DNA of 64,000 nucleotides. Source: Escherichia coli. GTDB lineage: Bacteria; Pseudomonadota; Gammaproteobacteria; Enterobacterales; Enterobacteriaceae. Made by a program: the position numbers. The DNA lies in the NCBI RefSeq assembly GCF_022846255.1, contig NZ_AP025682.1; one strand, written 5' to 3'. The first letter of the stretch is position 1. Each line of letters begins with the position of its first letter. Shown piece by piece: positions 28,601 through 31,600 of the stretch.

Positions 28601-31600
28601 TGTCTGCGGCGTCTGGGAATGCGCAAATGGAATAACCATTCAGTGGGTTATCGCCGTGGCGAAGCGCCAGAAAAGCCGCCGGGCCGTGGCAAAGGGAGAT
28701 AACAAAACGGTCATTTTTGATTGCCCACTGTAAAGCGGCAGCTACGTCCTGGCTTTCAGGTAAACCAATAAGTGCGCCATGACCACCAGGAACAAAGATT
28801 GCTGCATATTCGCTATCAGCGTTGAGGCTGGCGACAACATCCGCGAGTTTCTTCGGATTGCGGAACAACGATTTATGCTGCTCAAAGAATGGCATTACTT
28901 TTTCATCTTTGTGCGGCATAGCCCAGTATTCAAACTTGGTCAACAGGCCGGAAATGGTCGCCACTTCGAATTCGAAACCTGCAGCATGGAGATGATACAA
29001 CGGCAGCAACGTTTCAATCGGATGGTTACCGGTCGAGAACAGTTTTCCGTTATCGGTCGGCAAATAACGTTCGTCCGCGGCGATCACCAGAATTTTATGT
29101 TTACCGCGATACGGTTTTGGATAGTCCACGCCATCAAGATCAGAGACAGGACTGGTATATTGGCTAAGCGAATATTCTGAAGGGAAGAATGCATTATCTT
29201 CAGCAATATCGACCTGCGGATTTTTACTTGTTTGAACAGTCATAGTGTATTCCTTATTGTTGCTTAGTTAGGGTAGTCACTATATTTGCGACTGAGCTGG
29301 TCGCTATTTTTAACCAGGCTGGAAAATTGAGTCAATATATCGAAAGCGGTAGTCGGCGGGTGTAAGTATGTAATGATGATGCTGCACTGGTGTTGAATAT
29401 TATTCACGCCAAATTTTCCTTATTGAGTAACGTCGTCGCAAGTGGCCTCAATGATTTTAGACCATTATCAGAGGTACGGGGTGGCGGGGAGAGATTTAGT
29501 GCTGTGGAATATTGTGGTGCTGATGAATATTTATATCGCGGATTGGTAGAGAAAAAGCTTATTTCATGCACTATTTTTGCAAATATTTCTATATGGGAAG
29601 CGTGTTTGTTACGGATTAATTCATAAAGAAATGCATTTGGGTGTTAGCTTGAAGAGTAGCTGGTTGATGTTATTGTGCCAGGAGGGGCAGGGTAAGGTGC
29701 TGTATCGATATGCTTCGGCAATTGCGTGTGCCGCAGATGGAGATGAAATGCCAATAAAAAAGCCTGAGTTCGATGAGGGACGAACTCAGGCTAGTGTTAA
29801 GTTTTACAGTAACACGCCGCAGCGAGTTGGCTGATTAGAACTGGTAGACGATACCAACTGCAAACTGGTCATCAGCTGCTGCGCCAGTAATGGCGGCGTC
29901 ATCTTTATCCAGCATGTTGAATTTGTATGCAGTATAAACGTTCATGTTCTTATTAAAGTAGTACCAGGTACCAACTTCAATGTAGTTCACACGGTCAGCG
30001 TCAACATATCTATGTCCAGGTACCCCTTTGATATCTTTACCTTTAGAGTACACATAACCTAAGGACGGACGCAGACCAAAGTCGAATTGATACTGAACAA
30101 CCGCTTCAAAGTTCTGGGTTTCATTGATAAGTTGATCACGCATTATTGTATTGCCTTCTCGATCGGCAACACCTGTATCAATAGAACCCGGAGTCATATT
30201 ACGAGTTTCGCCGTACATTACAGCTGCGTAGACATTGTTCGCGTCATACTTTGCAGCCAATGACCACAGTTCAGCATTTGAACCGTTTCCATCGGCAACT
30301 TGATCGTTGGTGCGATCAGATTTGCTATATGCACCAACGATACCAAAACCATTGATGTTATAGTCTACAGACAACGCATAGCCGTCACCATTTTGTTTCT
30401 TAGTGCTACGGTTGCTGTTTTTGCCTTGGTACTGAATCGCAAAATCAAGACCATCAACCAGGCCAAAGAAATCATAGTTACGGTAGGTTGCAACACCGTT
30501 GGTACGACCATTCATGAAGTTGTCAGCGGAAGCCCAGGAATCGCCACCCCATTCAACTAACATATCGGTATAAGCTGCGGCATCATAAGCAACACCGTAG
30601 TTACGGCCATAGTCAAATGATCCTAACTCGTTATATTTCAAACCGGCGAAGGTTAAACGGGTTTTTTCCTGGTTTTCACCTTCGGGCTTGCTGGCGTCGA
30701 GGTTGTATTCAAACTGACCAAAACCAGTCAGTTCGCTGGTGATTTGGGTTTCACCTTTAACACCGAAACGAGCATAGGAGGTATCTTCGTTTTCGCTGTT
30801 ATTATCATCAGTATTTGACCAGATGCGTTCGCCAACCATCTTGCCGTAGAAATCAACTTTATTGCCATCTTTATTATAAATTTCAGCCGCATTTGCTGCG
30901 CCAGCAACTAATAACGCCGGGACCAGCATTGCCAGAACTTTTCTTTTCATTATGTATTCCCTTGTGATTATAATCTTCATGAATATATCAATAAGTGCCG
31001 TTATCCAAAAAAAAGCACATTTGGATACTATTCTATGAAGTTCATTTTATTTTAAGGATTACATGTAACAAATGTATTTAAAAGATTTCAAAATGTTTCT
31101 AATCTATTTAATATAATTCAGGATTATGAATTCTGAATATAAACATTCATGAAGATTATAAATGTATATCAATAAGTTATGAGTTGAACTGAAAGATAGG
31201 GAGTATCAATGATCGTTGCGCTAAACGGCTGGTGTGATCACGCGCACATTAATGAAGGCATAAAAAAAAGCCGGCATCATGCCGGCCCAAAAAATATAAA
31301 CAAGACGATAAAAGGCTAATAACGGAGGCATCATGACACAGAATAATAAAAAGGTATAATTGTAATCAGTGCTAATATATTGATTGAATGAATTAATAAA
31401 GCCGATATCAAAGATAAATAAAATCGCTCAAAACGATTTTTCTTGTATTCACTGCCGTTGCGCAAAAATTATCTATTTGTTCAAAAAATGATTGAGTCTT
31501 GACTGGCTCATTCAATGTGGAAAAATGTGATTTTTATCACATAATAGTACTAAGTCTGAATTTTCCGGGTTATCTCAAAATGGAATACGGTTCGACAAAG

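Follow-up and report, generated by a model that had tools for sequence, protein, structure and literature searches.

An intact yedS porin gene between hchA and rseX

The window, that is, the whole 64-kb stretch of E. coli DNA analysed here, is 100% identical to E. coli FDAARGOS_497 and carries the gene order hprS-hchA-porin-drpB-yedJ-dcm-vsr, with the small RNA gene rseX directly upstream of the porin gene. On the minus strand, an open reading frame of 381 aa (29835-30980) contains an internal ATG at 30950 (MKRKV) from which the porin begins, giving a coding sequence of 371 aa plus stop (29835-30950). A reading of the DNA made from the sequence only (hereafter the sequence-only reading) had described an uninterrupted 371-codon porin frame running from a signal peptide to a C-terminal Phe. 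This is borne out by translation, which meets neither a stop nor a frameshift, and by RefSeq, in which the product equals WP_000824355.1, annotated as 'porin' at the identical locus with matches to PF00267 and NCBIfam porin models. The part coding for the signal peptide (30888-30950, minus strand) encodes 21 aa, the mature chains of solved porins aligning from residue 22, and the protein terminates in VGIVYQF. An intrinsic terminator-like hairpin, with a 12-bp stem followed by a T run, lies 3' of the gene (29761-29792, minus strand), and rseX (31263-31352, minus strand; scored at 99 bits by Rfam RF01401, whose gathering score is 50) bounds its upstream region.

The porin lies in the yedS/ompS1 locus position, in the order hchA, porin, rseX, drpB (yedR), yedJ and dcm. 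It is E. coli yedS, the positional counterpart of Salmonella ompS1, which we take to be syntenic with dcm/yedJ. The neighbours drpB-yedJ-dcm are also present at the porin locus in at least 20 other Enterobacteriaceae. Database names for yedS relatives include 'outer membrane protein yedS' and 'outer membrane protein S1', and the gene has been named 'yedS (ompS1) b1964' (PMC2731931).

Judged by its sequence, YedS belongs to the general-diffusion trimeric porins of the OmpF/OmpK35 type and is a full-length Porin_1 protein, with PF00267 found on the identical protein and the NCBIfam OmpF, OmpC and PhoE models aligning end to end. Its best structural relatives by sequence are Klebsiella pneumoniae OmpK35 and E. 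coli OmpF, the OmpK35 chain 9hn1 aligning over the full length with E = 8.7e-145, and the full-length alignment to solved OmpK35, OmpF and PhoE chains suggests a 16-stranded beta-barrel trimer. In particular, the Sec signal peptide, the acidic L3 motif (LVEWGGD) and the C-terminal beta-signal with its Phe (YQF) all align with those of OmpK35. YedS is not OmpF, OmpC or PhoE proper, because it does not reach the curated cut-offs (450 vs 583 bits for OmpF, its best NCBIfam model; 417 vs 484 for OmpC; 414 vs 599 for PhoE), and its gene is at a different locus from ompF. Long yedS alleles of other strains do exceed the OmpC subfamily cut-off. Additionally, YedS of the window has an extra loop segment at about residues 255-272, which is gapped in OmpK35 and in other yedS alleles.

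Allele classes of yedS in E. coli

The sequence-only reading took yedS to be a fragmented gene in K-12, and this is correct, as K-12 yedS is annotated 'frameshifted; internal stop', and in our alignment its codon 162 reads TAG and 1 nt is deleted. The same reading treated the intact gene as a departure from the K-12 state; the gene is indeed yedS and whole here, but there is nothing unusual in this, intactness being the majority state in E. coli. Specifically, in an even sample of 13 genomes across 4914 hits, yedS is intact in 11, and is a pseudogene only in K-12 and an O157-type strain. The window allele class occurs in approximately 892 of 5426 complete genomes, and the 90% cluster of the window allele holds 1321 member sequences. 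K-12 yedS occupies the same slot between hchA and rseX/drpB and has the same promoter, leader and signal peptide as the window gene, yet it belongs to a long, OmpC-subfamily-like allele class with about 60% amino-acid identity over the mature protein, and it carries the two lesions. The K-12 pseudogene is therefore not a broken form of the window gene but a member of another allele class, and it is a poor reference for the locus because E. coli as a species has intact genes of several highly divergent allele classes, all under one promoter that is conserved and probably silent.

The signal peptide is nearly invariant between allele classes. The mature-porin coding region of yedS is a hypervariable cassette, and a literature search on yedS allelic diversity found nothing relevant. 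Studies of phage receptors, immune selection and antibiotic permeability may find the more useful lead in this cassette-like diversity. Intactness as such matters little, being the usual state, and functional YedS already has a known link to carbapenem entry. Warner et al. (2013, Antimicrob Agents Chemother 57:1935) reportedly described the yedS porin (b1964-b1966 in K-12) as functional in a clinical isolate resistant to carbapenems; PMC4048246 and PMC11267920 cite that study for a functional YedS, and intact yedS outside K-12 has been reported there to matter for carbapenem entry.

A conserved, predicted OmpR-type promoter and leader

We compared the upstream region with that of positional orthologues adjoining drpB-yedJ-dcm. 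Across the 20 or more orthologues, four blocks stand out as conserved: a set of OmpR-type boxes, a TAGTAT hexamer, a 5' hairpin whose stem shows compensatory changes, and the leader, including its Shine-Dalgarno sequence. The OmpR-type boxes form the strongest conserved block across genera. Four such predicted half-sites in 10-bp phase, GAAACATTTT, GAAATCTTTT, AAATACATTT and GTTACATGTA (31060-31099, minus strand), cover about -42 to -81 from the predicted start site, the third being about 1 bp out of phase, and TGTTACAT within them matches the ChIP-derived OmpR motif TGTWACAW (PMC3586657). The predicted -10 hexamer TAGTAT (31025-31030, minus strand) recurs at the corresponding position of 23 orthologous upstream regions (TACTAT in one) and places the predicted start near 31018. 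We propose that this is a sigma-70 promoter with a poor -35, which would need OmpR on the four phased boxes, in the arrangement of ompC, ompF and ompS1. The start site and the binding of OmpR, like that of IHF and H-NS discussed below, are predicted from motif match and conservation.

The predicted layout is like that of E. coli ompC (micF-ompC intergenic region), in which tandem OmpR boxes stand just upstream of a weak -35; yedS GAAACATTTTGAAATCTTTT matches the ompC C1 box TTTACATTTTGAAACATCTA at 13/20 positions, and the ompC upstream region also has an IHF-core match further upstream in the same orientation as in yedS (AATCAATAACTTA). Unlike ompC, yedS has only four recognisable half-site boxes, no divergent micF-like gene and a leader that is unrelated in sequence and carries an Escherichia-specific repeat insertion.

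The second model for the locus is Salmonella enterica ompS1 (STY2203 / t0883), a quiescent porin that is OmpR-bound and OmpR-dependent (PMC3586657), repressed by H-NS/StpA and derepressed by the antagonist LeuO (PMC4393010, PMC4264507); rseX is likewise repressed by H-NS (PMC8313858). In yedS we find OmpR-type boxes, upstream DNA rich in A+T and a start region complementary to RybB. By analogy, and in line with these motifs, the AT-rich upstream DNA of yedS is probably held largely silent by H-NS/StpA; LeuO may relieve the silencing, and transcription would require OmpR.

The predicted 68-nt leader would begin with the 5' hairpin and continue with a conserved AU-rich block and the Shine-Dalgarno sequence. 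The hairpin (GUGCU...GGCAC; 30995-31018, minus strand), compared by per-sequence folding and a count of the outer pairs, lies at the same place in 14 orthologues and shows three Watson-Crick pair types at stem positions 3 and 4. From the predicted start onwards, the 98 nt of the leader region show no overall excess of structure (z = 0.26). The Shine-Dalgarno sequence AAGGGAA (30957-30963, minus strand) lies in the AU-rich block, in which AAGGGAATA(C/T)ATAATG is common to nearly all 21 aligned orthologues, Atlantibacter hermannii differing.

The first yedS codons may pair with the sigma-E-dependent small RNA RybB. In particular, AAAGAAAAGUUCUGGC at codons 2-7 (30931-30946, minus strand) is predicted to form a duplex with the RybB 5' end at a dG of -21.9 kcal/mol (p = 0.03 vs shuffles), comparable to the known ompC target. 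MicF control of yedS was reportedly described by Warner in 2013; in our calculation, the energy of the MicF duplex with the yedS leader is no better than that with shuffled targets (p = 0.69). The RseX-yedS duplex is marginal (p = 0.07) and has long interior loops. ompS is a RybB target in Salmonella, and sigma-E induction represses yedS 2.5-fold (PMC1804206, PMC2731931, respectively), which is consistent with the RybB control that we infer for yedS in E. coli.

Two composite repeats around the predicted promoter

The sequence-only reading had drawn attention to two related direct repeats in the upstream region. They are real, TCATGAATATATCAATAAGT lying at 30977-30996 and TCATGAAGATTATAAATGTATATCAATAAGT at 31147-31177, the earlier coordinates having been off by 1 nt. 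A repeat search resolves them into three relations. One is a direct repeat of 13 nt without mismatch, TATATCAATAAGT, at 30984-30996 and 31165-31177; another is the core TTCATGAA, also repeated directly; and the third, which had been missed, is an inverted repeat of 17 nt, likewise perfect, at 30968-30984 and 31145-31161. The 13-nt and 17-nt repeats are non-random: when the 312-nt intergenic region is shuffled 5000 times with its dinucleotides preserved, the probability of a direct repeat of at least 13 nt is 0.004 and that of an inverted repeat of at least 17 nt is 0.0004, in DNA that is 72% A+T. Neither motif recurs elsewhere in the 64-kb window at 0-1 mismatch. The direct copies are 181 bp apart and bracket the conserved promoter, the proximal one lying in the predicted 5' UTR and the distal one about 150 bp upstream of the predicted start.

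The repeats form two composite elements, each a 13-mer beside a 17-mer, with the 17-mer inverted in the distal one. In the proximal element, the arm of the inverted repeat (30968-30984; +35 to +51 of the predicted 5' UTR, 100% complementary to the distal arm) belongs to a leader block conserved across genera (ATTCAT..ATTAT.AT), and the adjoining 13-mer (30984-30996; ACTTATTGATATA on the gene strand) corresponds to an Escherichia-only insertion of 6-8 aligned columns, which lengthens the leader by about 10 nt relative to other genera. The distal element has its arm at 31145-31161 (about -127 to -143), and the 13-mer (31165-31177, plus strand, the feature extending to 31179) overlaps an IHF-like core, TATCAATAAGTTA, at 31167-31179. 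This 13-mer aligns with a conserved ATAAC-N4-TGATA block, a match to the IHF core WATCARNNNNTTR. In Escherichia, Leclercia and Silvania this match keeps its place and orientation while its N4 varies; Klebsiella, Raoultella, Citrobacter and Enterobacter lack the exact consensus. Shuffling the AT-rich region gives a single IHF core match in 13% of cases (P = 0.13), so that the core alone is not significant, and the proximal copy has no such match (TATCAATAAGTGC).

The earlier suggestion that the repeats could be tandem regulator-binding sites is not supported, as the copies flank the promoter at a distance of 181 bp and form no tandem array, and the direct repeat is only marginal in other E. coli. 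The sequence-only reading had advised looking for an OmpR-type or other regulator consensus within them; OmpR-type boxes do exist at this promoter but lie between the repeats (31060-31099), not inside. Compared by eye, Fur (12/19), FNR half-sites, PhoP, CpxR and CRP sites do not fit both copies, and neither does the MarA/SoxS marbox, of which GCAC is present and the rest is poor.

Inverted repeats of 17 bp that bracket a 160-bp segment with the whole promoter recall the ends of an invertible promoter or of a miniature transposable element, which we regard as vanishingly improbable here. When the 160-bp inter-arm segment was flipped in the query and searched in 5426 complete genomes, none of the 4879 genomes with at least 80% coverage carried the flipped form, and there is no recombinase gene in the neighbourhood, so that inversion is ruled out at assembly level. 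A transposable element or IS remnant is ruled out by the repeat geometry, the 13-mers being misplaced for target-site duplications (one inside the arms, one outside), and by the conserved interior, which is the ancestral promoter and is present in other genera without the repeats.

Distribution and likely origin of the repeats

The exact distal repeat version occurs in 53 of 5426 genomes. The window type of the distal element (ACTTATTG / AATCTTC) differs from the majority type (ACATATTG / AATTTTC), and the distal 13-mer has at least one change everywhere outside the 53-genome lineage, leaving a direct repeat of only 10 nt in other E. coli (p about 0.1). The inverted arm is more persistent; it carries at least one mismatch in most other E. 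coli sampled but is kept with no more than one in most alleles, reaches significance in 10 of the 14 alleles from E. coli, and in the K-12 type, with one mismatch, still reaches p < 0.003. The arm has eroded in E. albertii, E. fergusonii and Citrobacter. None of the 19 promoters at the orthologous position in other genera has such a repeat, and absence from orthologous promoters was what the sequence-only reading had named in advance as speaking against its proposal. The repeats are largely confined to the window lineage and show no sign of being a regulatory device.

Could the similarity be a chance resemblance in low-complexity AT-rich DNA, sharpened by two fortuitous substitutions in the window lineage? 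The weak direct repeat outside that lineage points this way, as do the p values of about 0.09 and 0.08 in an Escherichia outgroup genome (L037) and the fact that the 13-mer match borrows 'AC' and 'ATA' from flanks conserved for other reasons. The significance of the inverted repeat, whether perfect or of the K-12 type, argues against chance, and so do the adjacency of the two repeats in both copies and the reproduction of the distal sequence by the Escherichia-specific leader insertion; we consider this explanation improbable.

Taken together, the best explanation of the locus as a whole, and one that we hold to be fairly probable, is an intact yedS porin with its promoter and with repeats that arose as a small duplication and decayed in most lineages. 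We infer that this duplication took place in an Escherichia ancestor, in which the distal 13-mer would be the older, IHF-like architectural site and the proximal 13-mer a short insertion into the leader, whereas the 17-mer would be ancestral in the leader and have been copied, inverted, to the upstream position.

Possible paired silencing sites and possible RNA pairing

Alternatively, the two composite elements might be paired binding or nucleation sites for one DNA-binding protein, whose bridging would loop out and silence the OmpR-dependent promoter. Candidates are H-NS or a dimeric factor on the 10-bp palindrome ATTCATGAAT, and TTGATATATT resembles what we take to be the proU high-affinity H-NS site, TCGATATATT. 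Both repeats exceed chance and adjoin each other in both copies, the elements bracket the promoter about 160-180 bp apart in a region of 72% A+T, most E. coli alleles keep the inverted arm with no more than one mismatch, and H-NS silences ompS1 and rseX (PMC4393010, PMC8313858). However, 19 other taxa lack the pair in orthologous promoters that share the OmpR boxes, -10 and leader; E. coli strains differ in the distal copy, whose 13-mer is changed outside the 53-genome lineage and whose palindrome is altered to ATTCGTGAAT in strain U13A; and none of the known regulator consensus sequences suits both copies, the IHF core being matched by the distal one only. We therefore regard paired sites as unlikely. 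Because the pair has decayed in most E. coli lineages, it is in particular unlikely to be an obligatory paired operator. The specific form of this proposal, in which 30968-30996 and 31145-31177 make an E. coli-specific operator or nucleation pair and H-NS or a dimer on ATTCATGAAT clamps the yedS promoter in a repression loop of approximately 180 bp, seems quite unlikely.

Paired silencing sites would add a small, lineage-variable layer to porin regulation. If such a loop formed, natural distal-site variants would set porin silence per lineage, which could bear on porin-dependent carbapenem entry and on the yedS-yedR intergenic SNPs reported as host-informative (PMC11267920).

The inverted arms might instead act in RNA, with transcripts that read through from rseX or start upstream forming a long-range helix just 5' of the Shine-Dalgarno sequence and altering how this minor mRNA form is translated or how stable it is. 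rseX does lie immediately upstream on the same strand, and a 342-nt read-through RNA folds with a 19-bp arm-arm helix in both its minimum-energy and its centroid structure. Yet rseX ends in a strong terminator, with eight U residues in a row and a GC-rich stem of 9 bp, the z-score of the whole RNA is only -1.4, the Shine-Dalgarno sequence itself is left unpaired and the arms are not conserved outside E. coli, which makes a role in RNA highly improbable.

Returning to the duplication that we favour, the two bases that make the window's repeat perfect are shared with other species, the T in the 13-mer with E. fergusonii and the C in the arm with E. albertii. Because of these matches, the perfect repeat may be ancestral and under some constraint and not a relic. 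In addition, the significance of the inverted arm across most E. coli alleles is not strongly predicted by a purely neutral history.

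yedS is an intact porin gene and is commonly whole in E. coli

The region 29700-31560 is 100% identical to strain FDAARGOS_497, the window being E. coli chromosome, and the gene order annotated in that strain is hiuH, hprR, hprS, hchA, 'porin', drpB, yedJ, dcm, vsr and yedA. A mechanical ORF list places a minus-strand ORF of 381 aa at 29835-30980, because an in-frame ATG at 30980, located within the palindrome TTCATGAA, lengthens the yedS ORF by 10 codons. This upstream ATG is probably not used as a start, since it has no Shine-Dalgarno sequence and is located before the conserved one. 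Specifically, the porin start (MKRKV) is the minus-strand ATG at 30950, which gives a 371-aa product identical to RefSeq WP_000824355.1, and this frame translates without interruption, as the sequence-only reading had claimed. YedS has a 21-residue signal peptide, with the mature chains of solved porins aligning from residue 22, and ends in ...VGIVYQF; a terminator-like hairpin is predicted downstream of the gene at 29761-29792. The protein carries PF00267 and is by sequence a general porin, matching the OmpF, OmpC and PhoE models with every score under the curated cut-off. Its nearest solved structure is OmpK35 (E = 8.7e-145), whose L3 motif LVEWGGD is kept. One study equates yedS with ompS1 (PMC2731931), and some database entries name the gene 'outer membrane protein S1' or 'yedS'.

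The K-12 copy is indeed broken, as the sequence-only reading had stated: it is annotated 'frameshifted; internal stop', and our alignment shows a TAG stop at codon 162 together with a 1-nt deletion. A search of 5426 complete E. coli genomes found the yedS locus in 4914. Among 13 loci sampled at even steps down the ranking of these 4914 matches, 11 are annotated as an intact porin of 352, 357, 371, 387, 395 or 404 aa, the only pseudogenes being those of K-12 and the O157-type strain 10671. Additionally, the 90%-identity protein cluster of the window allele holds 1321 member sequences, and the clusters of other yedS alleles hold thousands. PMC4048246 and PMC11267920 credit Warner et al. 2013 with finding yedS active in a clinical isolate resistant to carbapenems. 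Taken together, the sequence-only reading named the gene correctly, and its intactness is ordinary: yedS is a known gene that is commonly whole and already in RefSeq.

In some strains IS elements cluster around yedS: one has IS5 and IS1 pseudogenes on either side of the intact gene, and another has an annotated IS1A transposase separating two porin features within the match (the two are strain 2017.17.01CC, locus L005, and NZ_CM163382.1). The adjoining cell-division gene drpB is annotated as a pseudogene at two loci, L008 and L009 (one internal stop, one frameshifted). A 2.1-kb contig from a metagenome-assembled genome labelled 'Collinsella sp.' (JAIJJM010000575.1) carries a porin identical to the window allele and, after it, an HchA fragment with 98% identity to that of E. 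coli; the contig almost certainly reached the bin as E. coli contamination.

The mature porin region forms a hypervariable cassette

Comparison of loci L003-L013, L096 (E. fergusonii) and L098 reveals that the mature porin region of yedS (29835-30860) is a hypervariable cassette. The allele classes share 97-100% nucleotide identity in both flanks, the promoter, the leader and the signal peptide, but identity falls to 20-80% from about 30860 through to the stop codon and is back at 97% immediately past it. There are at least four classes, with 57-68% amino-acid identity between them. Using mature-region queries at a coverage of at least 80% against 5426 genomes, we obtain approximate counts of 892 genomes for the window class (371 aa), 1140 for the 352-aa class, 1388 for the long class (395/404 aa) and 366 for the 387-aa class. 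The long alleles of 387, 395 and 404 aa, the K-12 pseudogene among them, exceed the NCBI OmpC-subfamily cut-off; those of 371, 357 and 352 aa score best against OmpF, passing no cut-off, and are OmpF/OmpK35-like. The E. albertii allele groups with the long class (87%) and that of E. fergusonii with the window class (85%). A literature search for cassette-like allele diversity of yedS found no description.

In E. fergusonii (PTSU01000012.1), the yedS orthologue is directly followed by a second Porin_1 gene, so that the locus holds tandem porins (1501-2586 and 3163-4086).

The predicted promoter and leader of yedS are conserved across genera

The small-RNA gene rseX (Rfam, 99 bits) occupies 31263-31352 directly upstream on the same strand, and the true intergenic region is therefore 30951-31262, 312 nt long and 72% A+T. 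Among the orthologous loci scanned, Rfam detects rseX in Escherichia only; its only other gathering-level matches in the window are the small RNA DsrA (39688-39774) and two tRNA genes (21230-21302 and 22294-22380).

A scan of one genome per species for porins adjoining drpB-yedJ-dcm found orthologues in Citrobacter braakii, Enterobacter, oxytoca-group Klebsiella, Raoultella, Leclercia, Kosakonia, Phytobacter, Silvania and a divergent Escherichia genome (L037); loci of E. albertii and E. fergusonii, obtained separately, completed the set. The upstream alignment contains four conserved blocks. The first, GAAACATTTTGAAATCTTTTAAATACATTTGTTACATGTA (31060-31099), consists of four boxes phased at ~10 bp that resemble OmpR sites, matching ompC C1 at 13 of 20 positions. 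It includes TGTTACAT, which fits the motif TGTWACAW enriched at OmpR ChIP peaks, one of them upstream of ompS1 (PMC3586657). The second block, AAATGAACTTCATAGAATAGTAT, holds TAGTAT at 31025-31030, conserved in almost every orthologue examined (one has TACTAT), which we take as the predicted -10 element. The third (30995-31018) is a hairpin starting 6-7 nt after TAGTAT, at the predicted mRNA 5' end. Its sequence varies by genus with pairing retained (GUGC/GCAC, GUAG/CUAC, GUAA/UUAC, GUCA/UGAC), and stem positions 3 and 4 show three Watson-Crick pair types among 14 orthologues. This pattern indicates a 5' hairpin kept across genera via compensatory changes, next to the fourth block, a conserved AU-rich leader ending in AAGGGAAUA(C/U)AUAAUG. 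With TAGTAT as the -10 element, transcription would start near 31018, giving a 68-nt leader and placing the OmpR-type boxes at ~-42 to -81, a predicted arrangement that is the layout of ompC and ompF.

The upstream repeats bracket the predicted promoter and have apparently opposite histories

The sequence-only reading had proposed two related direct repeats as tandem regulator-binding sites. The two related sequences do exist (30977-30996 and 31147-31177). A repeat search resolves them into a perfect 13-nt direct repeat (30984-30996 and 31165-31177) and, directly adjoining it, an overlooked perfect inverted repeat of 17 nt (30968-30984 and 31145-31161), centred on the palindrome ATTCATGAAT. 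Along the gene strand, ACTTATTGATATA abuts TTCATGAAGATTATAA in the proximal element; the distal sequence is ACTTATTGATATA-CATT-TATAATCTTCATGAAT. Shuffling the intergenic region 5000 times with dinucleotide composition preserved gave P = 0.004 for direct repeats of 13 nt or more and P = 0.0004 for inverted repeats of 17 nt or more; no close recurrence of either was found elsewhere in the 64-kb window. The tandem arrangement is not borne out: the proximal element lies inside the predicted leader (+23 to +51) and the distal one at ~-127 to -159, bracketing the predicted promoter.

Each upstream region was also compared with itself, leader against distal part, relative to shuffles. In E. coli, 10 of the 14 alleles have a significant inverted arm, and the direct repeat is marginal (10 nt, p about 0.1) except in the window lineage. 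By this test, all 19 other taxa lack both repeats; the repeats are missing from orthologous promoters outside Escherichia, an absence that the earlier proposal had itself named as counting against it. An exact match to the distal sequence found here was obtained in 53 of 5426 genomes, MS6198 and ECONIH1 among them. The repeats are therefore genuine in the window strain, lineage-limited and not tandem. A repression loop formed between the paired sites, via H-NS or a dimer on ATTCATGAAT, is improbable, because the pair is absent from other genera having the same promoter and the distal copy varies within E. coli.

The alignment indicates that the two modules have opposite histories. The 17-mer appears ancestral in the leader: the fourth block of other genera reads ATTCATATTAATTATGAT, and the upstream inverted copy is recognisable in E. 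coli only, decaying in the divergent Escherichia L037, E. albertii, E. fergusonii and Citrobacter. The 13-mer, conversely, appears ancestral in the upstream position, where it aligns with the invariant columns of a conserved ATAAC-N4-TGATA block, the plus strand of which matches the IHF core, WATCARNNNNTTR (31167-31179). Exact cores at equal distance and orientation are found in all Escherichia, four Leclercia genomes and Silvania, varying only in the N4 spacer, and ompC has a similar IHF core upstream. The leader copy of the 13-mer corresponds to an Escherichia-only insertion, TTATTGAT, which brings the leader to 68 nt versus 53-59 nt elsewhere, and does not fit the IHF core. A second IHF-core match, AATCAATATATTA, lies at 31373-31385, just upstream of rseX.

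The bases that perfect the window repeats, a T as in E. fergusonii and a C as in E. albertii, may be ancestral states lost elsewhere; this would argue against strong selection for identical copies, although it cuts both ways. A long-range RNA helix between the arms in putative read-through transcripts is physically possible on folding, yet we consider it very improbable. An invertible promoter was rejected, the flipped arrangement occurring in 0 of 4879 genomes, as was a transposable-element origin, which is at odds with the repeat geometry and the conserved interior. In our view the repeats are what remains of small local duplications in the Escherichia ancestor, not a device in their own right.

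Proposed regulation of yedS

We propose that the window yedS is a complete OmpF/OmpK35-like porin gene, probably low-expressed, with a weak sigma-70 promoter that would be activated by OmpR at the four predicted boxes. The AT-rich upstream DNA and the IHF-like site may have an architectural or a silencing role; published work implicates H-NS/StpA with LeuO at ompS1 (PMC4393010, PMC4264507) and H-NS at the neighbouring rseX (PMC8313858). The 5' hairpin probably shields the 5' end of the mRNA, judging by other omp mRNAs that are stable. Additionally, the 5' end of RybB is predicted to pair with yedS codons 2-7 (AAAGAAAAG..UGGC; -21.9 kcal/mol, p = 0.03), with a duplex energy similar to that of the known ompC site. 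Consistent with this pairing, RybB targets ompS in Salmonella (PMC1804206), and yedS of E. coli is repressed 2.5-fold when sigma-E is induced (PMC2731931).

The LysR-type regulator PgrR (YcjZ) has a genomic-SELEX target printed as 'yedX/yedS', beside leuL/leuO (PMC5934670), which may point to a regulator of the yedS region, although the printed pair is not adjacent on the chromosome.
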